This document shows, piece by piece, positions 1,425 through 30,062 of a DNA stretch of 59,449 nucleotides (position 1 is its first letter; the number at the start of each line of letters is the position of its first letter). The stretch spans positions 1 through 59,449 of the forward strand of contig JAGXAL010000002.1 of NCBI GenBank assembly GCA_018971605.1, written 5' to 3'. Under the pieces are notes generated by a model. The model searched no databases. It was not told the origin of the DNA and was given only the letters and a program-made list of their open reading frames with translations. The DNA is from Natronospirales bacterium (GTDB lineage Bacteria > Pseudomonadota > Gammaproteobacteria > Natronospirales > REEB76). Made by a program: the position numbers and the translations under genes.

Positions 1425-2333
1425 ATGACGAAACTCGCGCCGCGCGTATTGCTGGTAGGCTACGGCCAAATGGGCCACGCCATGCGGGCGTTGCTCGCGC
1501 CCCGCGCGCGCTTGGCCGTCTGGCGGGTCACGCCGCAACGCCAAGTGCCGGGCGCCGTCATGCGCGCGACACTGGCGGCAAGCGATTTTGTGATTTTGTG
1601 CGTGCCCACGCTGGCGCTCGCGCCGCTGCTCGCGCGCATTATGCCGTGTGCCGCTCGCCAGGCGGTGTACTTGAGCTTTGCCAAAGGCTTGGACGATGCC
1701 GGCTGCACGGCGGCCGACATTTTCGAGGCGCGGCTCGGGCCTCGCGCTTCTTGGGGTGTGCTCGGCGGGCCGATGATTGCCGCCGAACTTTCCGCCGGGA
1801 GACACGGTTACGCCGAAATGGGCACACGCAGCGTGGCGGCGCGCCGCGCTACGCTGCGATTGTTCCGCGCTACGCCGCTGCATATCGCGGAGCGCGCGAG
1901 CCAGCCGCTCGCCGTGTCCTGGTGTGGCGTGCTCAAGAACATTTACACGCCGCTCTTCGGATTGGCGGACGGTCTGGGTTGGGGCGACAACGTGCGCGGT
2001 CGCCTGGCGAACGGCGCGCTCGCAGAAATCAGCCGCCTGATCGAGCGCTTCACCGGTGCGCCGCATGCCGCTGCCGGAGTCGCGGGCCTCGCCGATCTGG
2101 TCACCACGGCCACCAGCAAGAGTTCGCATCATCGCGCGCTCGGCCGGCGCGTGGCGCGCGGCGATTACTCGAGGCCCGAGGGCGAGGGACCGCATTCGCT
2201 GCGCGTGCTGCAACGGCTGCACCGCCTGCCGGCTGCGCAGGCTTTTCCGCTGCTGGCATGCGCCGCGCTGCTCGCGCGCCGCCCGGCGGCGGCTGGTGCA
2301 GAGCTGCGCGCCTGGCTCGCGGGTGGGGGCTAG
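1425..2333 (+). CDS. NAD(P)H-dependent glycerol-3-phosphate dehydrogenase-like protein (GpsA family)
   Basis: N-terminal Rossmann motif VLLVGYGQMGHA. It also has a GVLKNIY segment and GLADLVTTATSKSSHHRALG, which resembles the GpsA GLGDLVLTC..SRNRR region. I chose ATG 1425 over the GTG at 1416. Confidence 0.6.
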   Translation: MTKLAPRVLLVGYGQMGHAMRALLAPRARLAVWRVTPQRQVPGAVMRATLAASDFVILCVPTLALAPLLARIMPCAARQAVYLSFAKGLDDAGCTAADIFEARLGPRASWGVLGGPMIAAELSAGRHGYAEMGTRSVAARRATLRLFRATPLHIAERASQPLAVSWCGVLKNIYTPLFGLADGLGWGDNVRGRLANGALAEISRLIERFTGAPHAAAGVAGLADLVTTATSKSSHHRALGRRVARGDYSRPEGEGPHSLRVLQRLHRLPAAQAFPLLACAALLARRPAAAGAELRAWLAGGG

Positions 2334-2728
2334 AGCGTGGCGATGCGCGTAGCGCGGGTTTCGCGTTCGTGTTTGCGCTGGCAGGGCTCGCAGCGTTTGG
2401 CGGTGGGATAGGCATTCAGGCGTTCGTAGGGAACCGGCGCGCCGCAGTCGATGCACACGCCGTAGCTGCCGAGCCGCATGCGCTCCCAGGCGGCTTCGAT
2501 GTCGCGCAGTTCTTCCAGATCGCGGTCGATCTCCGCGAGACGCACGTCCACCAGCAGGCTGGCAAGCGCTTCGTCTCCGGAATCCGGCACTTCACCGGCG
2601 AGCTGCCGATAATCCTCATTGTCCGAAGCCAGCAACCCGGCGCGGATTTCCTCGCGCATCACGCCATGCCGTGCCCGGAGTTTGTGGCGCAGTGCCTCGC
2701 GCTGTTTGTCGGTCAGGGCCTCGTGCAT
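2330..2728 (-). CDS. DksA/TraR family C4-type zinc-finger protein
   Basis: 132 aa with a coiled-coil-like N-terminal half and the C-terminal CIDCGAPVPYERL....CEPC four-Cys zinc finger. Its stop overlaps the convergent GpsA-like stop. Confidence 0.8.
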   Translation of the reverse strand: MHEALTDKQREALRHKLRARHGVMREEIRAGLLASDNEDYRQLAGEVPDSGDEALASLLVDVRLAEIDRDLEELRDIEAAWERMRLGSYGVCIDCGAPVPYERLNAYPTAKRCEPCQRKHERETRATRIATL

Positions 2729-2785
2729 GGTGAGTCCTCGCGTTTGTTGGTGTTCCTATATCAACAGAGCGCCGGTGTCGGTGCC

Positions 2786-2799
2786 TTGACCTGGATCAC
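2786..2799 (-). promoter_or_regulatory. Crp/Fnr-family box (TTGACCTGGATCAC), likely class II promoter for the dksA-like gene
   Basis: 13/14 match to the window-wide 14-mer. The centre lies 64.5 nt upstream of ATG 2728. A TATA-rich segment (GATATAGG on the minus strand, 2755-2762) sits at roughly the -10 position. Confidence 0.6.
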
Positions 2800-2829
2800 G
2801 CGCACAAAGGGAATCCGCGGTTCCGGCAA

Positions 2830-2902: not shown

Positions 2903-4876
2903 ATGGACACGCCACTGCTTTCCACCCCCGGCCGCATCGGCGGCCTGACGCTCAAGAACCGTCTGCTGATGGCGCCGATGGTGCGCAACTATGCCGACGA
3001 ACGCGGCCGCATGAGCGAGCGCTATCTGGCGCATCTCGCGCGCATTGCCCGCGGCGGGGTCGCCGCCATGATTCTGGAGGCCAGCTTCGTGACTCCCGAA
3101 GGCCGCGGCTTCAGCCACGAGCTCGGTCTGCACGAAGACGGCGTGGTGCCCGGGTTGCGTCGCGCCGTGGAGCTGATCCACGCCGAAGGCGCGCTTGCCG
3201 GCATCCAGCTTTATCACGCGGGCCGTCAGACCAGCCAGCAGGTCACCGGCACGCAGCCGCTGGCGCCGTCGGCCATTCCCTGTCCGCTGCTGAATCAATT
3301 GCCGCGCGCGCTCACGCTCGCGGAAATCCAGACGCTGACAGGTGCTTTCGCAAGCGCGGCGGCCCGCGCGCAAGCCGCGGGTTTCGACTTCGTGGAAATC
3401 CACGCGGCCCACGGTTATCTCATCACCCAGTTCCTGTCGCCCTTCAGCAACCGGCGCAGCGACGCTTACGGCGGCAGCACGGAGAACCGCCGGCGCTTTC
3501 TCGACGAGATCATCACCGCAGTGCGCGCGCGCGTCGGTCCGCAGTTCACCGTGACGCTGCGCTTGTCGGCCGACGAGATGGTGCCGGGGGGGCTGGAGAT
3601 CGCCGACAGCTGCGAGCTGGCTGCGTGGCTCGAGCGGCGCGGCATCGCCGCGATTCACGTGTCGGTCGGCAATTACGCCTCCTACACGCGCGGGCGCATG
3701 ATTCCGCCAATGTCAGTGGAGGATGCGCCGCTACTGGCTTACGCCGAAGGCATCAAGCGACAGGTCAGGATTCCGGTGATCGCGGTGGGCAAGCTGCGCA
3801 CGCCGGCGCTGGCCGAAGCGGCTTTGCGCCAGGGACAGGCGGATTTCATTGCGCTCGGACGCGAGCTGCTCGCCGATCCGGACTGGCCGCGCAAGGCGCT
3901 GGCTGGCGAAGGCGAGCGCATTCACGAGTGCATCGCCTGCAACCAGGGCTGCATCAGCCGCCTGTTCGAACAGCGCGACGTGTGGTGCACCGTCAATCCC
4001 GAGTGCGGGCGCGAGCGCAAATTTGCCGCGTTCGCGGCCGACAACGGCCAGCGCAAAGTGCTGGTGGCCGGCGGCGGCCCGGCCGGCATGGCGGCCGCAT
4101 GCTACGCGGCGCGCGCCGGTTTCCAAGTGATCCTGTGCGAGGCGCGCAATGAATTGGGCGGCCAATTGCTGGCCGCGAGCGCCGCACCCCATCGTCCCGG
4201 CTGGCGCGAGCTGCGCGCGGGTATGCACACTGCCCTGCGGCAGTTGGGCGTGGAGTTGCGCTGCAACACGTGCGTGGACCGCACGTACGTGGAGCGCGAA
4301 CGGCCTTATGCGCTGGTGGTGGCCACCGGCGCAGTGCCGGTGCGTCCGCAGATTCCCGGCATCAACAAAGTCAACGTAATCAGCGCCCGCGACCTCCTGG
4401 AAGGCGGGGCCGAGGCCGAGGGCCGGGTGTTGGTGGTGGGCGGCGGCTGCTCCGGGGCGCAGACCGCCGAATATCTGGCGCAAGCGGGGCACGCGGTGAC
4501 CATGGTCGAGGCGGAAGGCGACATCGCCGCGGATGCGCCGCTCGACGAGCGTACGCTGCTCGTGGGACGGCTGCGCGCGCTCGGCGTGAACATCATGGCG
4601 CACACCCGCCTGCTCAGCATCGGCGAGTATCCGCTGCTGCAGTCAGCCGCCGGCGAACACTTTCAATTGCCGGTGGATACGGTGGTGCTGTGCCTGGGCG
4701 CGCGTTCGGTCAACAGTCTCGAGCAGGAAGCGCTCGGCCTGGTGTCGCGGGTATATACCGTGGGCGACGCCGTGCGCCCGCGCAAGGTCACGGAAGCGAT
4801 TGCGGAAGGCGCACTCGCCGGACTCGGTGCGGCGCGCGACAGCACGGGCCAAACTGCCCGCGCGCTGACGGCATGA
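2903..4876 (+). CDS. FadH-like NADH:flavin oxidoreductase (OYE-type FMN domain + 4Fe-4S Cys cluster + FAD/NAD(P) domain; 2,4-dienoyl-CoA reductase family)
   Basis: N-terminal OYE-like segments (LKNRLLMAPM, HAAHGYLITQFLSP). Cys cluster HECIACNQGC....WCTVNPECG. A GxGxxG motif (VLVAGGGPAGMAAA) and a second one (VLVVGGGCSGAQTA). Start taken at MDTPLL (ATG 2903). Confidence 0.85.
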   Translation: MDTPLLSTPGRIGGLTLKNRLLMAPMVRNYADERGRMSERYLAHLARIARGGVAAMILEASFVTPEGRGFSHELGLHEDGVVPGLRRAVELIHAEGALAGIQLYHAGRQTSQQVTGTQPLAPSAIPCPLLNQLPRALTLAEIQTLTGAFASAAARAQAAGFDFVEIHAAHGYLITQFLSPFSNRRSDAYGGSTENRRRFLDEIITAVRARVGPQFTVTLRLSADEMVPGGLEIADSCELAAWLERRGIAAIHVSVGNYASYTRGRMIPPMSVEDAPLLAYAEGIKRQVRIPVIAVGKLRTPALAEAALRQGQADFIALGRELLADPDWPRKALAGEGERIHECIACNQGCISRLFEQRDVWCTVNPECGRERKFAAFAADNGQRKVLVAGGGPAGMAAACYAARAGFQVILCEARNELGGQLLAASAAPHRPGWRELRAGMHTALRQLGVELRCNTCVDRTYVERERPYALVVATGAVPVRPQIPGINKVNVISARDLLEGGAEAEGRVLVVGGGCSGAQTAEYLAQAGHAVTMVEAEGDIAADAPLDERTLLVGRLRALGVNIMAHTRLLSIGEYPLLQSAAGEHFQLPVDTVVLCLGARSVNSLEQEALGLVSRVYTVGDAVRPRKVTEAIAEGALAGLGAARDSTGQTARALTA

Positions 4877-6663
4877 ACGACGCGCGGCCTGCGCCGTTCA
4901 GCAACGCGGTGTCGGCGCGCATCTGGGAGCAGCGCTACCGCTACCGCGTGGGCGAGCGCGCAATCGATGCCGATGTCGATGGCACCTGGCGCAGGGTGGC
5001 GCAGGCGCTGGCCGCGGTCGAGCGCGGGGATCAAAGCGGCTGGAGCGCACGCTTTCACGCCTTGCTCAAGGACTTTGCCTTTCTGCCGGGCGGCCGCATT
5101 TTGGCGGGCGCCGGCACCGCGCATCGCGTCACGCTGTTCAACTGTTTCAGCATGGGTGTGGTGCCGGATTCACTCGACGGCATCCTCACGCGTTTGCGCG
5201 AGGGCGCACTCACGCTGCAGCAGGGCGGCGGCATCGGCTGCGATTTCTCCGCCATCCGCCCCGCCGGGCTCACGGCGCGCGCCAGTGGCAATACCGCCAC
5301 CGGACCGGTGTCGTTCCTGCGCGTGTGGGATGCGGTCGCCGATACCATCCAGTCGCTGGGCGCGCGCCGCAGCGCCATGATGGCCACGCTGCGCTGCGAC
5401 CACCCCGATATCCTCGAGTTCATCAATGCCAAGCGCGCCGGCGGCCTGCGCAATTTCAACCTGTCGGTGCAGATCACCCGCGAATTCATGCAGGCGCTGG
5501 ACCAGGGCGGCGACTGGGAGCTGGTGTTCCCGGCCGACGTCTGGCCCGAGGGCCTCGGCGAGGCGCAGACGCTGCTGCGCCGCTGGCCCGGCCGCGACGC
5601 GCCGCTGCGTTGTCGCGTGTTGCGGCGTCTGCCAGCGCGGGAGTTGTGGCAGGCGCTGGCGAGCGCGGCGGCGGCCTGCGGCGATCCCGGGGTGTTGTTC
5701 GTGGATCGCATCAACGAGGAAAACAATCTGTGGTATTGCGAATACCTGAGTACCACCAATCCCTGCGGCGAAGTGCCGTTGCCGGAGTATGGCGCCTGTA
5801 ATCTCGGCTCCTTCAACCTTACGCAGTTCGTGCGCGCGCCGTTCACTGCTGCGGCGGTCTTCGATTTCGCGCGGCTCGAGGCGCAGGTGCCGACGGCCGT
5901 GCGGCTGCTCGACGACGCCATCGAGGTTTCCCGGTTTCCGCTGCCGCAGCAGGCCGACAGCGTGCGCCGCAGCCGCCGCCTGGGCCTGGGCGTCACCGGC
6001 TTGGCCGACGCGCTCATCATGCTCGGCCTGCACTATGCCTCGGCGGCCGCGCGCGAATTTGCGCAGCGGGTTTTGCGGTTGCTGCGCGATGCGGCCTACA
6101 GCGCTTCGGTGACGCTCGCCGGTGAGCGCGGCGCGTTTCCGGCCTTCGATCCCGACGAGTACCTGCGCAGCGCTTTCGCGCAGCGCCTGCCCGAAGAGCT
6201 GCGTTCGCGCATTTTCATCCACGGCATCCGCAACAGCCACCTGCTGGCGATCGCACCCACCGGCACCATCAGCCTGCTGGCCAACAACATTTCCAGCGGT
6301 ATCGAGCCGGTATTCGATTTTCACGTGCGCCGGCGCCTGCGGGCTGCGGACGGCGGTGCCGAAGACTATCCGCTGACTGATTACGCTTGGCGGCTATGGC
6401 GCGGGCAGCGCGGTGAAGCCGCGCCCGGCCCGGCCTTGGTCACCGCGGCGCAAATACCGGCGGACGCGCAGCTCGCCATGTTGGCGGCCATGCAGCCTTA
6501 TGTGGATAACGCCATCTCCAAGACCATCAATCTCACGCAAGCCGGGCCCGCGGAAGTGAGCGGCATTTTCCTGGACGCCTGGCGCCTCGGCCTCAAGGGC
6601 TGCACTGCCTACGTCCACCAGGCCGGCCGCGACATCATAAGCTCGGCCCCGCCGCAGGGCTAA
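4873..6663 (+). CDS. nrdJ: adenosylcobalamin-dependent (class II) ribonucleotide reductase, short form without C-terminal Cys tail
   Basis: Contains the active-site motif STTNPCGEVPLPEYGACNLGSFNL, plus LPGGRIL, GGGIGCDFS and the C-terminal KGCTAY. ATG 4873 overlaps the upstream TGA (ATGA), so the two genes are translationally coupled. Confidence 0.85.
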   Translation: MNDARPAPFSNAVSARIWEQRYRYRVGERAIDADVDGTWRRVAQALAAVERGDQSGWSARFHALLKDFAFLPGGRILAGAGTAHRVTLFNCFSMGVVPDSLDGILTRLREGALTLQQGGGIGCDFSAIRPAGLTARASGNTATGPVSFLRVWDAVADTIQSLGARRSAMMATLRCDHPDILEFINAKRAGGLRNFNLSVQITREFMQALDQGGDWELVFPADVWPEGLGEAQTLLRRWPGRDAPLRCRVLRRLPARELWQALASAAAACGDPGVLFVDRINEENNLWYCEYLSTTNPCGEVPLPEYGACNLGSFNLTQFVRAPFTAAAVFDFARLEAQVPTAVRLLDDAIEVSRFPLPQQADSVRRSRRLGLGVTGLADALIMLGLHYASAAAREFAQRVLRLLRDAAYSASVTLAGERGAFPAFDPDEYLRSAFAQRLPEELRSRIFIHGIRNSHLLAIAPTGTISLLANNISSGIEPVFDFHVRRRLRAADGGAEDYPLTDYAWRLWRGQRGEAAPGPALVTAAQIPADAQLAMLAAMQPYVDNAISKTINLTQAGPAEVSGIFLDAWRLGLKGCTAYVHQAGRDIISSAPPQG

Positions 6664-6674: not shown

Positions 6675-6688
6675 TTGATCCAGGTCAA
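6675..6688 (+). promoter_or_regulatory. Crp/Fnr-family box (TTGATCCAGGTCAA, the window consensus form), promoter of the hsp20 operon
   Basis: Matches the window consensus 14-mer exactly. CAAAAT lies at 6710-6715, 31 bp from the box centre. The box is 106 nt upstream of ATG 6788. Confidence 0.65.
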
Positions 6689-6787: not shown

Positions 6788-7237
6788 ATGTATCTCACAC
6801 GTTATGAACCGCGGAATTTCTTCCGCGACATGTCCGAGGAATTCAACCGCATGTTCGGCGGCCGTATGGGAAATTACCTGCCAGCCGATGGTGGGGATCT
6901 CGCGGCGACCGACTGGCTGCCGGCCGTGGACATCAAGGAAGAGGACAGCCGCTTCCTGGTGCGCGCCGACCTGCCGGGCGTGGATCCCAAGGACGTGGAA
7001 ATCACCCTGCAAAACGGCACGCTGGCCATCAAGGGCAAGCGCGAGTCCGAAGCCAAACGCGACGAGCAGGACTATTATCGGGTGGAGCGCGTTTACGGCG
7101 AGTTCTTCCGCCGCTTCACGCTGCCGGATTCCGCCGACCCCGACAAGGTGACCGCCAAGTACGACAAGGGCGTGCTGGAGATCGAGATCGGCAAGTCCGA
7201 GGCGCGCAAGCCCCGGCGCATCACGGTGAAGTCCTGA
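6788..7237 (+). CDS. Hsp20/alpha-crystallin family small heat-shock protein
   Basis: Alpha-crystallin domain (WLPAVDIKEEDSRFLVRADLPGVDPKDVEITLQNGTLAIKG ... GEFFRRFTLP ... AKYDKGVLEIEI). RBS AGGAGGA at 6775-6781 precedes ATG 6788. Confidence 0.9.
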   Translation: MYLTRYEPRNFFRDMSEEFNRMFGGRMGNYLPADGGDLAATDWLPAVDIKEEDSRFLVRADLPGVDPKDVEITLQNGTLAIKGKRESEAKRDEQDYYRVERVYGEFFRRFTLPDSADPDKVTAKYDKGVLEIEIGKSEARKPRRITVKS

Positions 7238-7284
7238 AAGCTCCGCGATCGGGGCCATAGCCATTCAGGGTGCAGGAGATGGAT

Positions 7285-7494
7285 ATGTTCCGCAGATTCG
7301 TGCGTTTGCGTTGCCCCGAGTGCGACGAAGGGATTGCGCTGCCGCGGCGCAAGCTCGCCGTCGGCCAGAGCGTGCGCTGCCTGCACTGCGGCGCCGGCTT
7401 GTACGTCAATCGCGTGCACGCCGAGCCCGACAGCACGCGCCTCTGGCAACTGGAGAGCCGCGATCCCCTGGAAGAGGAGCGGCTCGGCACATGA
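7285..7494 (+). CDS. small zinc-ribbon protein (CPEC...CLHC), function unknown
   Basis: 69 aa with two CxxC pairs. RBS AGGAG at 7274-7278 precedes ATG 7285. Its stop overlaps the ATG of the next gene (ATGA). Confidence 0.5.
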   Translation: MFRRFVRLRCPECDEGIALPRRKLAVGQSVRCLHCGAGLYVNRVHAEPDSTRLWQLESRDPLEEERLGT

Positions 7495-7940
7495 GCGGCG
7501 GCGCGCTGGTACTGGTAGCGGACAGTGCCCGCGCGCGCTTGTTCAGTTGGGAGCGTGGCATCCCGCAGTTGCAGGAAATCGACGACTGGGTGAATGCCGA
7601 GGCGCGCTTGCCGCAACGCGCCTTGGCCAGCGACCGTCAGGGTCGCGGCTTCAATCGTCAGCGCGGCAGCCGCACTGCGCTGGGCAGCACCAGCTTACAG
7701 CGCAACAGCGCGCAAAAATTCGCGCTGCGCGTGGGCCGGCGCCTGGCCGCCGAGTCGAACGCACGCCGTGCCGCGCGCTTGTTCGTTTTCGCCGAAGCGG
7801 AATTTCTCGGCCTGTTGCGCAATGCGCTGCGCAGCCGCCGCCCCGGATTGCCGGTGCGCGGCATTGCCAAAAACCTGACGCGGGCCACGCCGCAACGCAT
7901 CCGCGAGTATCTGCCGAAATATATGGGGTTCAGCGCCTGA
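7491..7940 (+). CDS. host attachment protein family (Host_attach) protein
   Basis: 149 aa. The N-terminal LVLVADSARARLF, the central DRQGRGFN....S block, and the later FA..V...L.......RL.VFAEAEFLGLLRNAL pattern match my recollection of this family. Confidence 0.7.
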   Translation: MSGGALVLVADSARARLFSWERGIPQLQEIDDWVNAEARLPQRALASDRQGRGFNRQRGSRTALGSTSLQRNSAQKFALRVGRRLAAESNARRAARLFVFAEAEFLGLLRNALRSRRPGLPVRGIAKNLTRATPQRIREYLPKYMGFSA

Positions 7941-7967: not shown

Positions 7968-8546
7968 TCAACCGGCGGGTTGGCGGGCGCCCCGCATGCG
8001 CCAGAACAAAATCAGGCGCACCGAGCCGCTGAACAGCAGGTTCACGCCCAGCAAGCTGCCGATGGCCCACAATGAACTTGAGGGCCAGTTGAGGGCAATC
8101 AACAAGCCGAGCACCAAGGCGAGTACCGCGTTCACCAGCAGCCAGCGCGCACCGGGCAGCCGGCGCAGGCGCAGGAAGGCACCCAGCATGGCGCCGGCTT
8201 CCAGCAGGAACAACACCGCCAGCACCAGGGTGAGCGAGGCCAGGCTCTCGCGCGGATGCAGCAGCAGGTAAACGCCGGCGATCAGGTACACCAGGCCCAC
8301 AGACAGGCCCCATGCCAGATCGCCGGCCGCGCGTGCATTCCAGGCGTACACAATGTGCGCCAAGCCGCTGAACACCACGGTCCATATGACCAGGATCGCC
8401 ACGGCGACGCCGAGCGCGCCCGGCAGCATCAATGCCAGCAAGCCGAGCAGGATGAGCAACAGCGCCATGCCCACGGAAATCGCGGTTTCGCGGCGCGCCG
8501 CTTCGGCGGGAGCCGAGCGCAGGCCGGTAACCGATCCGGATATCAT
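7968..8546 (-). CDS. HdeD/DUF308-type multi-pass membrane protein
   Basis: 192 aa with about six hydrophobic helices. The repeated GxxxL/W pattern is typical of HdeD-like acid-resistance membrane proteins. Confidence 0.6.
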   Translation of the reverse strand: MISGSVTGLRSAPAEAARRETAISVGMALLLILLGLLALMLPGALGVAVAILVIWTVVFSGLAHIVYAWNARAAGDLAWGLSVGLVYLIAGVYLLLHPRESLASLTLVLAVLFLLEAGAMLGAFLRLRRLPGARWLLVNAVLALVLGLLIALNWPSSSLWAIGSLLGVNLLFSGSVRLILFWRMRGARQPAG

Positions 8547-8719
8547 CCAGGCGCTCCCGTGAATCTGCCGCGTCGCGGCTGTACTCGATGGCTTGGCCGG
8601 TCTACGTCCGTGATGCGTCCCTTGTTGCGTGCCGCATAAAACACGCTCTTGCCCTTTTCCGGGCCGTACTCTTTTTGCATTTGCTGCAGAATCTTGCGGC
8701 CTTTCGCGGTCAGCGGCAT
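8543..8719 (-). CDS. small basic hypothetical protein (58 aa, below the ORF-track cutoff)
   Basis: My own translation gives MPLTAKGRKILQQMQKEYGPEKGKSVFYAARNKGRITDVD.... Its TGA overlaps the hdeD-like ATG (ATGA). Its ATG lies 10 nt inside the end of the USP gene. Confidence 0.35.
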   Translation of the reverse strand: MPLTAKGRKILQQMQKEYGPEKGKSVFYAARNKGRITDVDRPSHRVQPRRGRFTGAPG

Positions 8720-9696: not shown

Positions 9697-9768
9697 GGAA
9701 ACTCGCTTTGCGCCCTGGGCGCAACTGTATCCGTGGCGACAATATGAATTGGAATGGGCGGGGGGACG

Positions 9769-9782: not shown

Positions 9783-9813
9783 GCGTCCGGTGTTCAGCAC
9801 ATAAGGATCGCGC

Positions 9814-10488: not shown

Positions 10489-10525
10489 ACGCAGCTCCCG
10501 TAGCAATTATAAGGCGCGAGGCTTG

Positions 10526-18432: not shown

Positions 18433-18436
18433 AGGT

Positions 18437-21127: not shown

Positions 21128-21160
21128 GCGTGGCTTATTCCCGCACGCGCCGCACAATGC

Positions 21161-21649: not shown

Positions 21650-21663
21650 ATGACCTGGATCAA
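21650..21663 (+). promoter_or_regulatory. Crp/Fnr-family box (ATGACCTGGATCAA), probable promoter of the flavodoxin gene
   Basis: TATCTT at 21687-21692 is 33 bp from the box centre. The box lies 84.5 nt upstream of ATG 21741. Confidence 0.55.
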
Positions 21664-22247: not shown

Positions 22248-22261
22248 CTGATCCAGGTCAA
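22248..22261 (+). promoter_or_regulatory. Crp/Fnr-family box (CTGATCCAGGTCAA), promoter of the CBS-APH/P-loop operon
   Basis: TAAGCT (22284-22289) is exactly 32 bp from the box centre. The box lies 73.5 nt upstream of ATG 22328. Confidence 0.65.
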
Positions 22262-22327: not shown

Positions 22328-22777
22328 ATGAATATCGGAGATATTTGCAGCCGTGCGGTGGTCAGCATCGGTGTCAACGACCCGGTGCGGCAGGCCGCGG
22401 AAATGATGAGGAATTACCACGTCGGCAGCCTAGTGGTGACCGAGAGCAGCGACGGTGGTCTGACGCCGGTCGGCATGCTCACCGATCGTGACATCGTGGT
22501 CGGCATCGTGGCCAAGGATGTGGATCCGCTGACGGTCACGGTGGGCGACATCATGAGTCCGGATCCGCTGATTGCCGCGGAAGACGACGATGTCGCGGAA
22601 ATCCTCGAGGACATGCGCAAGCAAGGCGTGCGCCGCATCCCGGTGGTGGATGAGGCTGACAAGCTGATCGGTATCTTCGCGCTGGACGACCTGCTGCAAT
22701 TGCTGGCGGTGCAGATGGACCTGGTGGCCGGCATCGTGGGCTCGCAGCGCCTCGAGGAAACCCGCCTACGCGCCTGA
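22328..22777 (+). CDS. CBS domain pair protein
   Basis: 149 aa with two CBS repeats (HVGSLVV...GMLTDRDIV and VRRIPVVD...IGIFALDDLL). RBS GGAGG at 22316-22320. Confidence 0.85.
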   Translation: MNIGDICSRAVVSIGVNDPVRQAAEMMRNYHVGSLVVTESSDGGLTPVGMLTDRDIVVGIVAKDVDPLTVTVGDIMSPDPLIAAEDDDVAEILEDMRKQGVRRIPVVDEADKLIGIFALDDLLQLLAVQMDLVAGIVGSQRLEETRLRA

Positions 22778-22818
22778 CCGTGCGCGACAGTTCCGACACG
22801 CAATATCGCGAGCGGGCC

Positions 22819-24387
22819 ATGACGGCTGAAACGGAGGTCGGGGTGCTGATCTCCGCTTTGCGCGATTCGCGTTGTTATCGGCACGCGGTCACTGGAATTG
22901 AAGTCGTGGAGACGCATGCCTCCTGGGTGCTGCTCACCGGCGAGCATGCCTACAAGATCAAGAAGCCGGTGAATCTGGGGTTTCTGGATTATTCGACGCT
23001 CGCAAAACGCCGTGCGGCCTGCACCGAGGAGCTGCGCCTGAGCCGCGCGCTCGCGCCGGAACTTTATCTCGACGTGGTGCCCATCACCGGCTCGGTGCGG
23101 GCACCGGTCATGAACGGTGCCGGTACGCCAATCGAATACGCACTGCACATGCGCGAGTTCGACCGCAGCCAGCAACTGGATGCGCTGCTCGCTGCCGGGC
23201 GGCTCGGCGAGCGCGACATGGACACTGTGGCCGATTACGTAGCCGCGTTTCACCTCGGCGCGCCGCGCGCCGCAGCGCCAGGCCCTTATGGCGTGCCCGC
23301 GGAGTTGCAGGCGGCGGCGCAGGACAACTTCGCTACGCTCGCGCCGCTGCTCGCCGGTCATTACGCCGCAGCACTCGCGCGCGTTCAGGCGTGGAGCGCT
23401 GCCGAGTACCTGCGCTGCCGCGAACTCATGGAAAACCGCCGGGCACAAGGCTGGATACGCGAGTGCCACGGCGACCTGCATCTTGCCAATCTCGCGCGTT
23501 ACGGCGGACGCCTGCTCGCTTTCGACCGCATCGAATTCGATCCGGTCTTGCGCTGGCTCGACGTGCTGAACGATACCGCGTTCCTGGTGATGGATCTGCT
23601 GGCGCGCGGGCGCCGCGATCTGGCTTGGCGTTTCCTGAACGGTTATCTGCAGCACACCGGCGATTACCGCGGGCTGTCACTCTTGCGCTATTACCTGGTG
23701 TATCGCGCGTTGGTGCGCGCCAAGGTCACGCTCTTGAAAGCGCGTCAGGCAGGCGTGGCCTTCGGCCTGGTGCCGGCCGAGGCCGAGCGCTATCTCGAGT
23801 TGGCGAGTGCGCTGGTCGAACCCACGCAGCCGCGGCTGGTGCTGATGCACGGTCTTTCGGGCTCCGGCAAGACCTGGTTGAGCGAGCGGCTCATGACCCG
23901 GCTGCCCGCGATCCGCCTGCGCTCGGACATCGAGAGGAAGCGCCTGCATGGCCTGATGCCTCTGGCACGCAGCGGCTCAGCCCCGGGGGCGCATTTATAT
24001 GATGTAGATACCACGGCCGAGACCTATCACGAGCTTCTGGCGCTCGCCGAGATCGGACTCGCCGCCGGTTACCACGTGATCGTGGACGCCGTGTTCCTGC
24101 TGCGCTGGCAGCGGCGGCTGTTCCGCGAACTCGCGGCGCGGCGTGCCTGGCCCTGGGTGATCGTCGAATGCCGCGCGCCGGAAATCCTGCTGCGCGAGCG
24201 CCTCGAGGCGCGGGGCGCGGCGGCTAACGACGCCTCGGAAGCCGGACTCGCGGTGCTCGATTACCAGTTGCGCTCGCGCGAGACGCTCGACCGGCGTGAG
24301 CGTGAGCATGTCATCGTAGTGGACAACCGGACTGCGCCCGATCCCGCCGCCGTCAGCGCCCGCGTCTTGAGCTGGTCGCAGGTGTGA
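22819..24387 (+). CDS. bifunctional aminoglycoside-phosphotransferase-like / P-loop ATP-binding protein
   Basis: The N-terminal half is APH/kinase-like (ETHASWVLLTGEHAYKIKKP; HGDLHLAN catalytic loop). The C-terminal half has the Walker A motif GLSGSGKT. Confidence 0.75.
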   Translation: MTAETEVGVLISALRDSRCYRHAVTGIEVVETHASWVLLTGEHAYKIKKPVNLGFLDYSTLAKRRAACTEELRLSRALAPELYLDVVPITGSVRAPVMNGAGTPIEYALHMREFDRSQQLDALLAAGRLGERDMDTVADYVAAFHLGAPRAAAPGPYGVPAELQAAAQDNFATLAPLLAGHYAAALARVQAWSAAEYLRCRELMENRRAQGWIRECHGDLHLANLARYGGRLLAFDRIEFDPVLRWLDVLNDTAFLVMDLLARGRRDLAWRFLNGYLQHTGDYRGLSLLRYYLVYRALVRAKVTLLKARQAGVAFGLVPAEAERYLELASALVEPTQPRLVLMHGLSGSGKTWLSERLMTRLPAIRLRSDIERKRLHGLMPLARSGSAPGAHLYDVDTTAETYHELLALAEIGLAAGYHVIVDAVFLLRWQRRLFRELAARRAWPWVIVECRAPEILLRERLEARGAAANDASEAGLAVLDYQLRSRETLDRREREHVIVVDNRTAPDPAAVSARVLSWSQV

Positions 24388-24409: not shown

Positions 24410-26701
24410 TCAGGCGTGCGCGAGGCTCTGGTAAATCTCCTCCTCCTGCGCGAAGTGCAGCCGCAGTATGGCGTCGAGCGCATACAGCAGCCGCTGCAAA
24501 TCACGCAGGGCTTCGGCATCCGGGCCTGGCGCGGGCAGCCGTGTGACGAGGCTGCTGAATTGTCGATGCAGACGGAAAATTTCCCGGTGGCTGCGGCTCA
24601 TCGCCGCCATCGGGTCATCGCCGCCCAGCAGCGCGGCCACCGCCGGATAGACCTGGCGGTCGTCGGCGCGTTCGTGCGGCAACAACTGCTGCTGCAGCAG
24701 CGTATCGAGTTCCTTGAGCACCGCCGGCACCTCGGTGCGTGGCAAGCCCGGCAGGCGATCGGCCACCGTGGTCAGCCGGTCGAGCACCGGCGCGAGCAGG
24801 GCGTGCTCTTGGCGCAGGCGCTCGGATTCCTCCGGGGTCAGGTTGTGCTGGCTGGCGCGCAAGGGATGGATGCGCAAGGCGCGCAGCGCATTGAGAATCA
24901 CCGCCACGTCGATAATCTCCTGCAGGATGGCGCCGTACAGCGGCGGCAGGTAACCGGCGGCGGCCACCAGCATGGCCGCGAGCGACAAGCCCATGCCGGC
25001 GAACACGCTCTGCAGCGCGATGCGGCGTGTGGCCCGCGCGATGTGCAGCGCCTCAGCCAGCCGGTCGAGACGATCCACCAGCAGCACGATGCCGGCGGCC
25101 TCCGCGGAGGCGGTGGCGCCGCGTGCGCCCATGGCCACGCCGACGCTGGCGGCGGCGAGCGCCGGGGCATCGTTCACCCCGTCGCCCACCATCACGGTCG
25201 GTCCCGCACTGCGCGCTGCCTTGAGCATTTCCAGTTTATGCGCCGGCGTTTGCTCGGCGAGCACTTCGTCCACGCCCAATCCGCTGCCGATAGCTTCGGC
25301 GACGTCGCGGCGGTCGCCGGTCAGCATCACGATTCGGCGGAAGCCCGCACGCCGCAGCAGGCGCAAGGCCCGCGGGGTTTCCATGCGCAGCTGGTCGGCG
25401 AGCAGCAGCACGCCGGCAAATTTTCCGTCAATGGCCACGAGCACGGTCGACGTGCCTTCGGTGCCGGCACGCTCCAGCAGCTCGCGCACCGCTGCCGGCA
25501 CCGGCGCGATGCGTGCGAGATAGCCGAGCGAACCCGCGACCACGCGTTTGCCGTCAACCGTGCCGCGCATGCCGGCGCCCACGGTTTCCACCACGTCTTT
25601 GGGAATGCTGAGCGCCAATCCGCGCGCCTGCGCCGCGCGCACTACCGCAGCGGCGATCACATGATGCGACATCTGTTCCAGCGAAGCCGCGGTCGCCAGC
25701 AGTTCATTCTCCCCGCCGGCGGCCGTGCTCTTGATCTCCACTAGGCGCGCCTCGCCGCCGGTGAGTGTGCCGGTCTTGTCGAAGAACAGGGTGCGCGCGC
25801 CCGCCAGGGTTTCCAGCGCGGCGCCGCCCTTGACCAGAATTCCGCGCTTGGCGCAGCGCGACATTCCGGAAACCATGGCCACCGGTACGGCCAGAATCAG
25901 CGGGCAGGGCGTGGCCACCACCACCACTGCCAAAGCCCGCAGCGCTTCGCCGCTCACGGCCCAGGCGATAGCGGCCAGCACCAGAGTTACCGGGATGAAC
26001 CACAGCGCGTAGCGGTCGGCCAGCCGCGAGGCGGGCGCGCGCGAACGCTGCGCCGCTTCCACCAGCTTCACGATGCCGGCAAAAGTGCTGTCGGCCGCCG
26101 TCGCGGAGGCCAGCAGGTCAAAAGAATCCGCGGCATTCAGCGTGCCGCTGTGCAGCCACGCGCCCCGCTCATAGGCCACCGGCACGGATTCGCCGGTGAG
26201 CGCCGCTTCATCCAGGACTGCGCGTGCCGCAATCAGAGTCCCGTCCACCGGCACCACTTCGCCGTGCCTTACGAGCAGGCGATCACCGGCGTTGACTGCG
26301 GCGAGGGGTACAGCAATGAGCTGGCCGTTGCTGTAACGACTGACAGTACGCGGGACCCTGGCGAGCAGGGCCGACATCTCGCGGCCGGCGCGGCGTTCCG
26401 CAAAACTCTCCAGCAGCCGGCCGCTCGCCAGCATCACCGCGATCACCGCGGCCGTCAGATTCTGGTGCAAGGCGATCGCCGCCACGATTGAAATCAGCGC
26501 CAGCAGGTCCACGCCCAGTTCGCGCCGCCACAGCGCCGCCAGCATTCCCTGCAGGAGCGACGCGACCGCCGGCACCGCGGCCGCCGCCCATACCCAGCCG
26601 GCCGTATCGCGAAGACCCGCAAGGCCAAGCACTGCACCCACGAGCAGACCGGCCGTACAGGCGGCGAACACGGCGATGTCGATGTGCCAGCGGATTTTCA
26701 T
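24410..26701 (-). CDS. P1B-type heavy-metal ATPase, P1B-5-like (TPCP motif, no N-terminal metal-binding domain, C-terminal hemerythrin-like domain)
   Basis: Contains DKTGTLT, TGD, GDGVNDAP, and the TM motif VVATPCPLILAVP. The last ~150 aa carry H/E-rich hemerythrin-type helices (HREIFRLHRQF ... LRLHFAQEEE). Start taken at MKIRWH (ATG 26701). Confidence 0.85.
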   Translation of the reverse strand: MKIRWHIDIAVFAACTAGLLVGAVLGLAGLRDTAGWVWAAAAVPAVASLLQGMLAALWRRELGVDLLALISIVAAIALHQNLTAAVIAVMLASGRLLESFAERRAGREMSALLARVPRTVSRYSNGQLIAVPLAAVNAGDRLLVRHGEVVPVDGTLIAARAVLDEAALTGESVPVAYERGAWLHSGTLNAADSFDLLASATAADSTFAGIVKLVEAAQRSRAPASRLADRYALWFIPVTLVLAAIAWAVSGEALRALAVVVVATPCPLILAVPVAMVSGMSRCAKRGILVKGGAALETLAGARTLFFDKTGTLTGGEARLVEIKSTAAGGENELLATAASLEQMSHHVIAAAVVRAAQARGLALSIPKDVVETVGAGMRGTVDGKRVVAGSLGYLARIAPVPAAVRELLERAGTEGTSTVLVAIDGKFAGVLLLADQLRMETPRALRLLRRAGFRRIVMLTGDRRDVAEAIGSGLGVDEVLAEQTPAHKLEMLKAARSAGPTVMVGDGVNDAPALAAASVGVAMGARGATASAEAAGIVLLVDRLDRLAEALHIARATRRIALQSVFAGMGLSLAAMLVAAAGYLPPLYGAILQEIIDVAVILNALRALRIHPLRASQHNLTPEESERLRQEHALLAPVLDRLTTVADRLPGLPRTEVPAVLKELDTLLQQQLLPHERADDRQVYPAVAALLGGDDPMAAMSRSHREIFRLHRQFSSLVTRLPAPGPDAEALRDLQRLLYALDAILRLHFAQEEEIYQSLAHA

Positions 26702-26807: not shown

Positions 26808-26821
26808 ATTGATCCATGTCA
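26808..26821. promoter_or_regulatory. Crp/Fnr-family box (TTGATCCATGTCAA) positioned to serve both divergent promoters
   Basis: TAGTTT (26844-26849, plus strand) and TAAGGT (26780-26785, minus-strand reading) each lie exactly 32 bp from the box centre. Confidence 0.65.
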
Positions 26822-26996
26822 AGGCCCGGCCCGACGGACCTGCGTAGTTTATACGGCGTTCCGCTGTGCTGATCGTCGTAATCCGCTGGCTGGATTCACG
26901 CGGTGATCAAGCCTTGGGCACGCCTTTTGAGGCGGGCCAGTGGTAGCGGCAGGGATGCGTAAATGGATACCGCTCTATGGCGCAACAGGAGGAGGC

Positions 26997-27581
26997 ATGC
27001 ACACGTTGATGGACCAACCCTTGGATAAAGTATCGCGATTTTTGCACCTGGGCCTCGCGGTCTTCGGTGTCGCGGCCTGGCTGATCGGTTCCGGCTGGAT
27101 CGGCGCCGGCGCCGGCGATTACGATCACGCCGATCATTTCTGGTACCTCCAGCACCGCTGGATCGGTATCACCTTCACCGCATTCCTGCTGGCGCGCGTG
27201 CTCTGGGGATTCGTCGGGCCCGCGAGTGCGCGTTTCGTGAATTGGGTGCCCTGGAGCTGGGCGCGCTTCAAGCTGGTCATCGAGGATGTGCAGGGCCTGC
27301 TCAGATTCCGCATACCCGACCGGTCGAGCCACCAGGGGCTGTCCGGCCTGGTGCAGTCGCTGGGCTTGCTGGTGTTTCTGTGGCTGGGAGTGAGCGGCCT
27401 CATGAATGCAGTCGCGATCACGCCCGGCGTGAAACTCACCGGCTGGATGCGCGAGGTCAAGGAGCTGCACGAAATCGGCGACGTGCTGGTGCCCGCGTAT
27501 CTCATCCTGCACGTCGGCGGCGCGTTATTGCACAGCCTGACCGGCAGGCCGGTGTGGAAGAAGATGGTGTTTCTTGAATGA
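26997..27581 (+). CDS. cytochrome b561 / Ni-hydrogenase b-type cytochrome family membrane protein
   Basis: Four predicted TM helices with conserved His residues (HLGLAVF, HQGLSG, HEIGDVLVPAYLILHVGGALLH). RBS GGAGGAGG precedes ATG 26997. Confidence 0.7.
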   Translation: MHTLMDQPLDKVSRFLHLGLAVFGVAAWLIGSGWIGAGAGDYDHADHFWYLQHRWIGITFTAFLLARVLWGFVGPASARFVNWVPWSWARFKLVIEDVQGLLRFRIPDRSSHQGLSGLVQSLGLLVFLWLGVSGLMNAVAITPGVKLTGWMREVKELHEIGDVLVPAYLILHVGGALLHSLTGRPVWKKMVFLE

Positions 27582-27630
27582 GCCGACTTTTTCAACAGGC
27601 GAACAGAGGTCTGACCTCAAGGAGATGGTT

Positions 27631-28251
27631 ATGAGAACGCGTATTTCCAGTGGATTCCTGTTGGCGGCGATGCTGGGCATCATCGCCTTAGCAGTGTCGG
27701 TGACGGCAACGGCCGGCGGCCATGCCGCATTGGATAGTTCACAGGCAGCAGGCGGGGCGCCGCCGGCGACGGAGGCAAGTATGAAATTTCCAGTCCCGGA
27801 TTCATTGACCGCGGAACATGCGGCCTTGCACGCCGAACTCGAGCAGATTATCCATACGGGCGGCAAGACCGGTCAGGCCGCACAAGCCGTGGCGGCGGTC
27901 CTGCAACCGCACTTCGTGAAGGAGGAAAAGTACGCGCTGCCGCCGCTGGCCCTGTTGGGTGATTTGGCGAGCGGCAATGTTTCGCCGGGGATGGCCGCGA
28001 TCCTGCCCTTGACGGACGAGCTTAAACGCAGCTTGCCGGAGATGCTGGCCGAACATCAGCAAATCCTCGCGGCGTTGCATCACCTCAGCGCGGTCGCCAA
28101 GGCGGAGCACAAGCCGGACGCCGAGCGCTTTGCGCACGAATTGATCCACCATGCGCAGACCGAAGAGCAGATCACCTATCCCGCGGCCATTCTCGTCGGC
28201 GAGTACGTGAAGCTGAGATTGAGCGCGGGAAACACCTCATCCGGCAGCTAA
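27631..28251 (+). CDS. secreted hemerythrin-like (HHE cation-binding) domain protein
   Basis: Has a signal peptide (MRTRISSGFLLAAMLGIIALAVSVTATA). H/E ligand-like motifs include AEHAALHAELE, HFVKEE, LAEHQQIL and HELIHHAQTEE. RBS AAGGAG at 27619-27624. Confidence 0.6.
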   Translation: MRTRISSGFLLAAMLGIIALAVSVTATAGGHAALDSSQAAGGAPPATEASMKFPVPDSLTAEHAALHAELEQIIHTGGKTGQAAQAVAAVLQPHFVKEEKYALPPLALLGDLASGNVSPGMAAILPLTDELKRSLPEMLAEHQQILAALHHLSAVAKAEHKPDAERFAHELIHHAQTEEQITYPAAILVGEYVKLRLSAGNTSSGS

Positions 28252-28343
28252 GCCAGTGACTTGAGGGCGGGCGGATATCAGGCCGCGCACAGCCAGCGCC
28301 TTGCCCCTGCCCGCCGAAGGCTTGCCAGCGTTACGATGCCTGC

Positions 28344-30062
28344 ATGCCTGCCGACAACGCTGAAATTGCCGCGCTCTTCGACCGCTACGCGGACCTGCTG
28401 GAAATCCAGGATGCCAATCCGTTCCGGGTGCGCGCTTACCGCAATGCCGCGCGTGTGGTGTCCGGTTCGCCGCGCAGCATGGCGGAACTGCTGGCCGAAG
28501 GCCGCGATCTCGAGGAGCTGCCGGGCATCGGCAAGGATCTGGCCGCCAAAATCGCGACCATCGTGCGCACCGGTGCGCTGCCCCAGCTCGAACAACTGCA
28601 GCAGCGCGTGCCGCGTGCGCTCAGCGATCTCATGGGGCTGCCGGGGCTTGGCCCGAAGCGCGTCAAGCTCCTGTACCGTGAGCTCAACATCCGCAGCATC
28701 GAGGATCTGCAGCGTGCCGCGCGCAGCGGGGCACTGGAAAAACTGCCGGGTTTTGGCGCCAAGACCATAGCGCGCATCCTCGGCGGTATCGAAAGCCGCG
28801 GCAGCGTGCCGCAGCGCTTCAAACTTGCCGACGCGGAACAGGCGGCTGCGCCGCTGGTTGCCTACCTGGAAAAAATCCGCGGCGTGAAGACCGTCACCGT
28901 GGCCGGTAGTTACCGGCGCCGGCGTGACACGGTCGGCGATCTCGACATTCTGGTGACCGCGCGGCGCGGCACGCCGGTAATGCGGCGTTTCACGCGTTAT
29001 GACGCGGTCGCCGAGGTGCTGTCGGCGGGTGCCACGCGCGCTTCCGTGCGACTGCGCAACGGCATGCAGGTGGACTTGAGGCTGGTGCCGGAAGCGAGCT
29101 ATGGCGCGGCGCTCTATTATTTCACCGGCTCCAAGGCGCACAACATCGCGGTGCGCAAGATCGCCGTCGGCAAGGGGCTGAAGATCAACGAATACGGCGT
29201 GTACCGCGGCGCGCGGCGCATCGCCGGGCGCAGTGAGGCGGAGTTGTTCGCCGCGGTGAATCTGCCATACGTGCCGCCGGAATTGCGTGAGAACCGCGGC
29301 GAGATCGAAACCGCGCGCAATGGCAAACTCCCCGAACTCGTGAGCTTGGCGGATCTGCGCGGCGATCTGCATGCGCATACCACGGCCAGCGACGGGCACG
29401 ACACGCTGGCTGCCATGGCCGGGGCCGCGCGCACCCTCGGCTATGCTTATCTGGCGATCACCGACCACACGCGCCAGGTGCGTGTGGCCCACGGGCTTAA
29501 CGCCCGAGAATTGCGCGCGCACTTCGCCGCCATCGACCGGCTGAATGCCGGCTTCAGGGATTTCCGCCTGCTCAAGAGCGCCGAAGTGGACATCCTCGAT
29601 GACGGCAGTCTGGACTTGCCCGCTGCGCTGCTGGCGGAAATGGACGTGGTCGTGGCCGCCGCGCATTACCACTTGGCACTGAGCGCCGAGCGGCAGACTG
29701 CGCGCATCCTCAAGGCGCTCGACAACCGCTGCGTGCACGTGCTCGCGCATCCCACGACCCGCTTGATAAATCAGCGCCCGGAGTTCTCCGCCGACATGCA
29801 GAAAATCTTTGCGGCCGCAGCCGAACGCCATGTGGCCATGGAAATCAACGCGCAGCCCGAGCGGCTGGACCTGGATGACATCCAGGCGCGCGCCGCCTGC
29901 GCCGCGGGCTGCAAGCTGGTGATTTCCAGCGACGCGCACAGTGCCGCGGGTCTCGCCAACCTGCGCTACGGCGTGGATCAGGCGCGCCGCGCCTGGCTTT
30001 CCAAGGAAGACGTGCTCAATACCCTGCCTTTGGATCGGCTGTTGCAGACATTCCACCACTGA
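28344..30062 (+). CDS. polX: family X DNA polymerase with C-terminal PHP domain
   Basis: The N-terminus has HhH motifs (FRVRAYRNAA, LPGIGKDLAAKI, LPGLGPKRV). The nucleotidyltransferase motif is GSYRRRRDTVGDLDIL. The PHP His motifs are DLHAHTTASDG and HPT. Confidence 0.9.
   Translation: MPADNAEIAALFDRYADLLEIQDANPFRVRAYRNAARVVSGSPRSMAELLAEGRDLEELPGIGKDLAAKIATIVRTGALPQLEQLQQRVPRALSDLMGLPGLGPKRVKLLYRELNIRSIEDLQRAARSGALEKLPGFGAKTIARILGGIESRGSVPQRFKLADAEQAAAPLVAYLEKIRGVKTVTVAGSYRRRRDTVGDLDILVTARRGTPVMRRFTRYDAVAEVLSAGATRASVRLRNGMQVDLRLVPEASYGAALYYFTGSKAHNIAVRKIAVGKGLKINEYGVYRGARRIAGRSEAELFAAVNLPYVPPELRENRGEIETARNGKLPELVSLADLRGDLHAHTTASDGHDTLAAMAGAARTLGYAYLAITDHTRQVRVAHGLNARELRAHFAAIDRLNAGFRDFRLLKSAEVDILDDGSLDLPAALLAEMDVVVAAAHYHLALSAERQTARILKALDNRCVHVLAHPTTRLINQRPEFSADMQKIFAAAAERHVAMEINAQPERLDLDDIQARAACAAGCKLVISSDAHSAAGLANLRYGVDQARRAWLSKEDVLNTLPLDRLLQTFHH

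Follow-up and report, generated by a model that had tools for sequence, protein, structure and literature searches.

In the 59,449-nt contig JAGXAL010000002.1 of a Natronospirales metagenome-assembled genome (MAG; GCA_018971605.1), which was analysed at its full length and is called the window here, positions 2.3-33.3 kb hold about 30 genes for stress, repair and nitric oxide (NO)/sulfide detoxification, contiguous over 31 kb, and this block is probably a chromosomal clustered regulon of a Crp/Fnr-family activator, the counterpart of the lxa locus of Burkholderia and of the Anr stimulon of Pseudomonas. Its promoters share a 14-bp inverted repeat of the Fnr type with the consensus TTGAYCYRGRTCAA. 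A first-pass annotation, made from the letters of this DNA, had proposed both the physical contiguity of the functional set and its wiring to one Crp/Fnr-type box; the contiguity was borne out over 2.3-33.3 kb, and the wiring was upheld by the number of sites and by the intergenic placement of the ten best.

Searching the window for TTGATNNNNATCAA with at most one mismatch returned 9 matches against 0.63 expected from shuffles (14-fold enriched), and 30 against 8.7 when two mismatches were allowed. A position weight matrix (PWM) was built from nine of the block boxes and run over the whole window: its top ten sites scored 16.5-25.6 and all others 12.3 or less, and all ten are intergenic and lie within 2786-30199. 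The boxed promoters number 11-12 in 28 kb, with one box each, and the boxed block extends to the end of the norCB-cytochrome c operon at ~33.26 kb. The sites, including a variant palindrome at 10527, are as follows:

2786-2799: TTGACCTGGATCAC, before the dksA-like gene; conserved in the related loci L087 and L099
2830-2843: TTGATCCAGGTCAG, before the OYE-nrdJ operon; TAGTTT 22 nt downstream
6675-6688: TTGATCCAGGTCAA, before the Hsp20-Zn ribbon-Host_attach operon; same box at 3697 in L087
9769-9782: ATGACCTGGATCAA, before the operon of the universal stress protein (USP) and DUF308 genes; centre 79 nt before the USP ATG
10527-10540: GTGACTTAAGTCAC, variant palindrome in the spacer between the regulator and DUF302 genes; TAGGCT 22 nt downstream towards DUF302
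11009-11022: TTGACCTGGATCAT, before the operon of the sulfide:quinone reductase (SQR) and RND genes
21611-21624: CTGATTTGGATCAA, weaker, before the lipoprotein-Pat operon; TAATTT 22 nt downstream
21650-21663: ATGACCTGGATCAA, second copy, before the flavodoxin-like gene
22248-22261: CTGATCCAGGTCAA, before the CBS-kinase/P-loop operon
26809-26822: TTGATCCATGTCAA, between the divergent P-type ATPase and cytochrome b561 promoters; TANNNT 22 nt off on either side
30186-30199: TTGACCTAGATCAA, top PWM score, before norCB; TAATAT 23 nt downstream

In nine of the 12 promoter orientations a TANNNT hexamer starts 22-24 nt past the box, against a background of 1% (binomial P ~2e-16), and no -35 element is recognisable at the boxed promoters. 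No consensus sigma-70 promoter was found in the block, and scans for sigma-70 promoters and terminators stayed at or below shuffle expectation. Taking the hexamers as predicted -10 elements, the box is centred near -41.5, the geometry of class II Crp/Fnr-activated promoters. The predicted transcription units are the dksA-like gene, OYE-nrdJ, hsp20-Zn ribbon-Host_attach, USP-DUF308, SQR-YgaP-OEP-MFP-RND, lipoprotein-pat, the flavodoxin gene, CBS-kinase fusion, the P-type ATPase gene, cytochrome b561-hemerythrin-PolX and norCB-cytochrome c. Outside the block, two perfect canonical FNR boxes were seen, TTGATGGGCATCAA at 37800-37813, between divergent genes for an SDR protein and for the B12-independent methionine synthase MetE, and TTGATATTCATCAA at 40272-40285, before prpD; neither has the C6/G9 core of the block boxes.

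Near-identical DNA occurs in mine-drainage and soil metagenomes, and the nearest relatives in the genome collection are gammaproteobacterial MAGs and a "Lysobacterales bacterium". Two of these loci, L087 (~85% nucleotide identity) and L089 (64-79% protein identity), keep the module with boxes at the same promoters; from the centre of the USP box it is 78-80 nt to the ATG in all three sequences (window, L087 and L089), and where the diverged intergenic DNA of both relatives is aligned, the box and the -10 element form islands of conservation (alignments A1 and A2). Six further MAG loci, whose USP orthologues are 50-71% identical, carry the same extended box ~90 nt upstream. Altogether the box is kept at orthologous promoters in L087, L089, L091, L097 and L099-L102, and this persistence in diverged relatives, with protein identities of 50-90%, argues that the boxes are real regulatory sites. 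A shared box and synteny in relatives had been set beforehand as a test of the first-pass annotation, and boxes were indeed found at orthologous promoters. More distantly, about 9 of 80 loci have an Fnr-type box immediately before the gene for the kinase/P-loop fusion, and in L090 (~57% identity) this gene stands alone among unrelated genes. We conclude from these sequence comparisons that the box sites are functional and that clustering is a property of the clade, in which gene order and membership are fluid. The possibility that the boxes are REP/MITE-like repeats was rejected: their flanks are unconserved, and they are conserved at orthologous promoters only.

The genes of the block were called from Pfam and NCBIfam scans of the window open reading frames (ORFs), and are listed here together with the second norCB copy that follows it:

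2330-2728, minus strand: DksA/TraR-type zinc-finger protein (PF01258, 53.8 bits; gene call in L093), with its box at 2786
2903-4876, plus strand: OYE/FadH-like Fe-S flavoenzyme (Oxidored_FMN and Pyr_redox_2)
4873-6663, plus strand: class II (B12-dependent) ribonucleotide reductase NrdJ (TIGR02504 NrdJ_Z, 515 bits against a cutoff of 400)
6788-7940, plus strand: operon of Hsp20 (6788-7237), a Zn-ribbon protein (7285-7494) and a Host_attach/baeRF family 12 protein (7491-7940)
7968-9696, minus strand: operon of a tandem USP (8710-9696), a 58-aa ORF and a DUF308/HdeD-like membrane protein (7968-8546)
9814-10488, minus strand: Crp/Fnr-family regulator (cNMP_binding and HTH_Crp_2 domains)
10610-10999, plus strand: DUF302 protein (Pfam)
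11097-18432, plus strand: operon of type I SQR, a YgaP-like transmembrane protein, OEP, MFP and RND pump
18437-21538, minus strand: operon of a small lipoprotein (21161-21538) and a Pat-type protein acetyltransferase (18437-21127)
21741-22226, plus strand: flavodoxin-like protein (Flavodoxin_4, a weak match of 33.8 bits against a cutoff of 24)
22328-24387, plus strand: operon of a stand-alone CBS pair (22328-22777) and a kinase-like (APH fold)/AAA_33 P-loop fusion (22819-24387)
24410-26701, minus strand: P-type ATPase of the heavy-metal P1B type, with TPCP motif and a hemerythrin domain at the C-terminus
26997-30062, plus strand: probable operon of cytochrome b561, hemerythrin and PolX (Pol-beta-like and PHP)
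30317-33261, plus strand: norC-norB, encoding a cytochrome-c-dependent NO reductase (cNor; best PDB match 3o0r_B, E = 6e-93), two small ORFs and cytochrome c
33871-36931, plus strand: second norC-norB-ORF-ORF-cytochrome c copy, without a strong box

The ten protein types named by the first-pass annotation are thus all encoded where it had placed them, according to Pfam, NCBIfam and motifs, and the SQR, RND pump, PolX and two NO reductases are joined to them as it had said (3sz0, 3o0r_B and Pfam). There are two norCB pairs, as proposed, and both are of the cytochrome-c-dependent type, not the quinol type. The extent of 2.3-37 kb that had been given for the block stands for the boxed part, up to ~33.26 kb, and fails for the second nor copy. 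This copy shares ~75% nucleotide identity with the first, has a GC content of 0.60, is absent from L087, and in run X25, from a strain of 95-99% identity, is missing or divergent, with low or zero coverage; it is probably a strain-variable duplicate or acquisition (33.9-36.9 kb) outside the core regulon.

Several products were characterised further. The nrdJ start overlaps the stop of the OYE/FadH-like gene, so that the two are translationally coupled. The tandem USP consists of two Usp stretches, with UspE and PA1789 as best PDB matches (E = 8e-20 for PA1789), and a GCGCC-N3-GGCGC hairpin directly before its ribosome-binding site (9700-9735), kept in the window, L087 and L089 (alignment A1), may be an element of translational control or RNA stability. 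SQR matches the Acidithiobacillus enzyme 3sz0 (E = 2e-155), and the Pat-type acetyltransferase joins NDP-forming CoA-ligase-like domains to a GNAT domain. In the kinase/P-loop fusion the motifs HGDLHxxN and GLSGSGKT were read directly in the protein; Pfam reports AAA_33 only, the kinase-like half being assigned from its motif and from the names and Pfam matches of homologues, and the PDB search returned no relative. The TPCP motif and C-terminal hemerythrin domain place the ATPase, by sequence, in the P1B-5 class, which has been described with hemerythrin-tagged examples from the nodule bacterium S. meliloti (PMC9388753). Within the ATPase gene ARAGORN places a tRNA-Gly (25055-25150, minus strand, 96 nt, anticodon acc), almost certainly a false positive. 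The Rfam scan of the window gave no match at gathering thresholds, and thus no B12/cobalamin riboswitch before nrdJ or metE. Downstream of the block, positions 44303-49809 encode a NarL-family response regulator, a dCache-HAMP-PASx3-HisKA_3 kinase, a receiver-only protein and a GGDEF protein, without a box, and beta-ketoacyl synthase genes lie at both contig ends.

The closest known counterpart is the lxa locus of B. cenocepacia J2315, which comprises 50 genes, induced up to 240-fold at 6% O2 and needed for anoxic viability, and which carries at 17 intergenic points a TGA-N6-TCA motif likened to Anr/Fnr boxes (Sass et al., 2013; PMC3721108). Going by that description, the two share the organisation of a contiguous cluster with an Fnr-like motif at many promoters and an Anr-related, CRP-family regulator inside, and both hold an alpha-crystallin Hsp20, USP, class II ribonucleotide reductase, cation P-type ATPase and cytochrome b561. 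The first-pass annotation had set the Crp/Fnr wiring of the window against lxa with a "but"; this contrast has to be dropped, since lxa itself has the Anr/Fnr-like motif and an Anr-related regulator (PMC3721108). The two loci differ in content: lxa has six USPs and the window one (tandem), and acetate kinase, Pta, alcohol dehydrogenases, polyhydroxyalkanoate synthase, ribokinase, lysine decarboxylase and two two-component systems are found in lxa only, none of the fermentation or storage genes (ackA, pta, alcohol dehydrogenases, polyhydroxyalkanoate synthase, ribokinase) being present among the Pfam-scanned window ORFs, whereas the window block adds cNor, SQR-RND, PolX, baeRF12/Host_attach, DUF308 and hemerythrins. 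Moreover, the window box has a constrained core (C6/G9), and its host is a gammaproteobacterial MAG, of another class.

Homologues of the kinase fusion sit in box-rich clusters on Burkholderiales chromids, with 16 boxes in 41 kb in B. stagnalis, 11 in Variovorax and 8 in C. metallidurans, against ~1.3 expected by an estimate from composition. The B. stagnalis region on chromosome 2 (L107, an unannotated record whose orthology to lxa is unproven) holds homologues of the kinase fusion, CBS protein, Hsp20, USP and P-type ATPase. In Variovorax boronicumulans (NZ_CP138497.1, 144-186 kb; L109) an annotated lxa-like cluster combines the kinase/P-loop fusion and its 11 Fnr-type boxes with five USPs, Pat, TraR/DksA, flavodoxin, hemerythrin, three P-type ATPases and a BON-domain protein, and further with acetate kinase, phosphoketolase and alcohol dehydrogenase.

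The Anr regulon of P. aeruginosa resembles the block in its TTGAT-N4-ATCAA/GTCAA boxes at class II positions, and norCB, nrdJ and a hemerythrin are among its members. The window tandem USP matches PA1789, and the Anr regulon includes the USPs PA3309 and PA4352 (PMC12071387). In contrast to the contiguous window genes, the Anr regulon is dispersed over the chromosome, and Anr has the N-terminal [4Fe-4S] Cys cluster that the in-cluster regulator of the window lacks. The FixLJ-FixK system of rhizobia offers a further parallel in a Crp/Fnr activator that has no Cys cluster and acts on TTGA-N6-TCAA boxes, in the hemerythrin-tagged P1B-5 ATPases of S. meliloti (PMC9388753) and in the homologues of the kinase fusion on rhizobial symbiosis plasmids. 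However, the NCBIfam FixK and FtrB scores of the window regulator are far below cutoff and FixK2 is absent from its PDB matches, and the two-component pair at 44.3-47.9 kb, with its dCache/PAS/HisKA_3 kinase and without a box, is not FixL-like.

The likeness to the M. tuberculosis DosR regulon is one of gene content. The list of DosR genes that the first-pass annotation had given (hspX, USPs, hrp1, nrdZ, ctpF and Rv2004c) agrees with the published one (PMC4090907, Table 3). The window CBS protein matches Rv2626c/Hrp1 over its full length (E = 1.4e-13), the reductase fits the same NrdJ_Z model as nrdZ, the Hsp20 and USP belong to the same Pfam families, and a P-type ATPase occurs in both sets. 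The parallel with Rv2004c is indirect and runs through Rhodococcus relatives of the window kinase fusion (~33% identity), which on pDK1 have as neighbours a GAF histidine kinase, USPs, PfkB and CBS proteins; homologues of the fusion are near NarL-type regulators in 7 of 28 actinobacterial loci, and a scan with the Rhodococcus homologue returned no Mycobacterium match. By contrast, DosR is a NarL-type response regulator acting on a 20-bp box, TTSGGGACTWWAGTCCCSAA, which has 0 matches in the window at up to three mismatches, and its genes are scattered over several loci. The window NarL-family regulator (44303-44950) is generic, with NarL as best PDB match and DevR fifth, and lies 11 kb outside the block, and its partner kinase has dCache/PAS, not GAF, domains. 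The proposed parallel between the window ATPase and CtpF holds at the level of the superfamily only, CtpF being a P2 ATPase and the window protein a P1B type with hemerythrin, and the tandem USP is UspE/PA1789-like, with Rv2623 absent at E < 1e-3. The likeness to dormancy and low-oxygen gene sets that had been claimed therefore stands for the gene set and appears, by sequence, to be in part true homology (CBS protein, reductase and kinase fusion); it does not extend to a tandem USP of the Rv2623 type.

The regulator encoded within the block (9814-10488) has the recognition helix VREIVSR, of the FNR-like E--SR type of half-site readers. This helix and three cysteines, C51, C85 and C91, are invariant in 24 regulator homologues of 53-84% identity (alignment A3), and the subfamily is marked by the motifs PC.G.PL and GESCLLSxSCLLG in the effector domain and by a GSVREIV(S/T)RLLR helix; in an alignment to CRP, C85 and C91 would flank the position of the cAMP phosphate-binding cassette. 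Orthologues with 75% and 83% identity (L091 and L106) are divergently linked to DUF302-SQR-YgaP-OEP-MFP-RND genes away from any stress block, and a genome scan with the regulator alone gave one locus. The SQR operon of L091 is preceded by a TTGAYC...GRTCAA box, of which L106 has a degenerate copy, and a box before SQR, beside the regulator and outside the stress block, argues that the regulator reads the box. The spacer between the regulator and DUF302 holds the palindrome GTGACYTARGTCAC (window 10527, L091 7947, L106 5946), which is CRP-like (GTGA...TCAC), not FNR-like, has the TAGGCT noted above as its -10 element towards DUF302, and may be an autoregulatory site. An interpretation of the 10527 palindrome as a DosR-like site (16/20 by eye) failed a 3-mismatch search.

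Several observations count against a low-oxygen regulon driven by this regulator. The class II geometry depends on predicted -10 hexamers, and the dksA, Hsp20 and SQR promoters have no clean TANNNT. The regulator lacks the N-terminal FNR/Anr Cys cluster (Cys-X2-Cys-X5-Cys plus a central Cys); its best and only strong PDB relative is 3dv8, an uncharacterised structural-genomics protein, and FNR, FixK2 and Dnr are absent from its PDB matches at E < 1e-3. All the boxes persist in the close relative L087, whose locus has no copy of the regulator, and L089 encodes a canonical FNR (Cys16/19/25 and ~117; ETVSR helix) beside hemN, 3.5 kb from the module, so that another Crp/Fnr protein may be the real binder. 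Under this alternative, which is quite possible though not probable, a canonical [4Fe-4S] FNR/Anr encoded outside the window reads the boxes and the in-cluster regulator acts only locally on DUF302-SQR-RND via GTGACTTAAGTCAC, the block still being a low-O2 regulon. It is also favoured by the constant pairing of the regulator with the SQR cassette and with a conserved palindrome of its own, distinct from the box, and by an Arg in the place of CRP R180; from established work on CRP/FNR specificity we infer that this residue favours GTGA. However, the SQR operon beside the regulator is boxed even outside the stress block, fully in L091 and in degenerate form in L106; neither the canonical boxes at 37800 and 40272 nor the L089 box on the hemN side nor the Burkholderiales boxes have the C6/G9 core of the block boxes, which suggests a distinct reader; and no canonical fnr was seen on the window contig. 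Weighing these sequence features, we consider the in-cluster regulator the most likely reader of the box, possibly together with a canonical FNR elsewhere; such an FNR is also its serious rival, and both may read boxes in overlap, by analogy with Anr and Dnr.

A related question is whether the primary signal is O2 at all, or instead a respiratory poison, either NO, with Dnr/NnrR-like logic, or sulfide/persulfide acting through the three invariant cysteines. This possibility is in keeping with cNor and SQR as boxed members of the block, with the genetic fixation of the regulator to SQR-DUF302-YgaP, with the three invariant cysteines of an effector domain that has no FNR cluster, and with the origin of the organism from mine drainage and soil, but it appears unlikely, because most members (NrdJ, Hsp20, USP, CBS, P-type ATPase and cytochrome b561) form the classical hypoxia set of lxa, Anr and DosR. 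In addition, the sulfide sensors known to us (CstR, SqrR/BigR and FisR) belong to families other than Crp/Fnr, and three cysteines with a fourth ligand, which hold the Fe-S cluster of Bacillus Fnr, could equally hold an O2-labile cluster here. As a tentative proposal of rather low probability, the regulator would found an uncharacterised Crp/Fnr subfamily with the C51/C85/C91 triad, at the cAMP site of CRP, as its sensor; a new Fe-S site, or else sulfide-driven Cys persulfidation, would let it sense that respiration is failing, and it would drive sulfide detoxification and a dormancy-like regulon through TTGAYCYRGRTCAA.

The composition of the block is mosaic. L087 lacks window 9791-20978 (11.2 kb, comprising the regulator, DUF302, SQR, YgaP, the RND system and most of pat), and also nrdJ and the second norCB copy, and the dksA-like gene is 79% identical to that of L089 and only 50% identical to that of the otherwise closer L087, which indicates recombination. 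The junction of the 11.2-kb gap lies ~25-50 nt from the USP box in both L087 (6816-6834) and L089 (7880-8065). Such variation might suggest a recently acquired mobile genomic island carrying an anoxic survival module, as might the kinase-fusion homologues on chromids and megaplasmids, some of them conjugative, and the left flank at 1-1900 (a fragment of a beta-ketoacyl synthase gene, a hydrolase gene and part of a gpsA-like gene), which has almost no coverage in the otherwise 55x X25 strain. Yet we regard such an island as very improbable: no integrase, transposase, relaxase, flanking repeats or credible tRNA was found in the window, the sole tRNA call being the one inside the ATPase gene; block and flanks have a GC content at third codon positions (GC3) of 0.82 and 0.80, respectively; the hyd-gpsA-dksA synteny of the left flank is kept in L087, L089 and L099; and a 5' fragment of pat (the first 50-60 codons), adjoining the lipoprotein gene, survives in both L087 and L089, which points to in situ deletion rather than insertion. 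For the same absence of mobility genes, the GC3 values and the left flank common to relatives, the suggestion that the module is "possibly transferable" found no support. The sequence pattern agrees with a hot-spot in the chromosome at which cassettes are gained and lost.

If the block is the regulon of a Crp/Fnr-family activator, a dimer bound to the box would contact RNA polymerase directly, as in class II activation, and the failure of respiration (low O2, possibly NO or sulfide) would lead the activator to switch on a toolkit for survival without growth. In this toolkit NrdJ would supply dNTPs independently of O2, while Hsp20 and the baeRF12 protein would preserve proteins and ribosomes, the one as a chaperone and the other possibly by ribosome silencing, a link between baeRF proteins and ribosome hibernation factors having been proposed (PMC6514570). 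The DksA-like, USP, CBS and Pat proteins would act as global regulators, Pat by protein acetylation, and the kinase/P-loop fusion would be a further member. The hemerythrin-tagged P1B ATPase may serve metal export or homeostasis and PolX the gap-filling repair of non-replicating DNA, and cNor would remove NO, and SQR with the RND pump sulfide, both poisons of cytochrome oxidase. By analogy with lxa, Anr and DosR, the most probable role of the block is to ready a respiring bacterium for times when it has no usable oxygen. Short, 100% identical contigs from one soil metatranscriptome cover Hsp20, USP/DUF308, the regulator, SQR, Pat, CBS, the kinase fusion and the ATPase, a thin record that carries no information on conditions. 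Runs X25-X27, although labelled RNA-Seq, were rejected as expression data: their flat ~55x coverage over genes and spacers is that of DNA from a 95-99% identical strain.

The block is thus probably another Crp/Fnr-boxed low-oxygen survival locus, from a lineage new to this class and with cargo that is partly new, and not a new kind of system. The overlap of lxa with DosR was listed in 2013 (alpha-crystallin, nitroreductase, ribonucleotide reductase, PfkB and cation ATPase; PMC3721108), together with the Crp/Fnr-box wiring, and a 2025 review tabulates which proteins Anr, Lxa and DosR have in common and puts forward FixLJ-FixK as the driver of lxa in the B. cepacia complex (PMC12071387), so that the central idea of the first-pass annotation was already in the literature. 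What the window adds is evidence that a clustered low-oxygen survival locus wired to Fnr boxes exists outside Burkholderia as well: its gene families and wiring occur again in Gammaproteobacteria from mine drainage and soil, and the families stand under DosR-type neighbours in Actinobacteria. PolX, Pat, baeRF12/Host_attach, the P1B-5 hemerythrin ATPase and SQR-RND are candidate additions to the toolkit, and the 11-12 near-identical predicted class II promoters form an unusually clean set for dissecting a Crp/Fnr regulator. The most interesting thread is the three-cysteine Crp/Fnr regulator linked to SQR; if the proposal made for it is true, it would be the first sensor of sulfide or redox state from the Crp/Fnr family to control a DosR-like programme.

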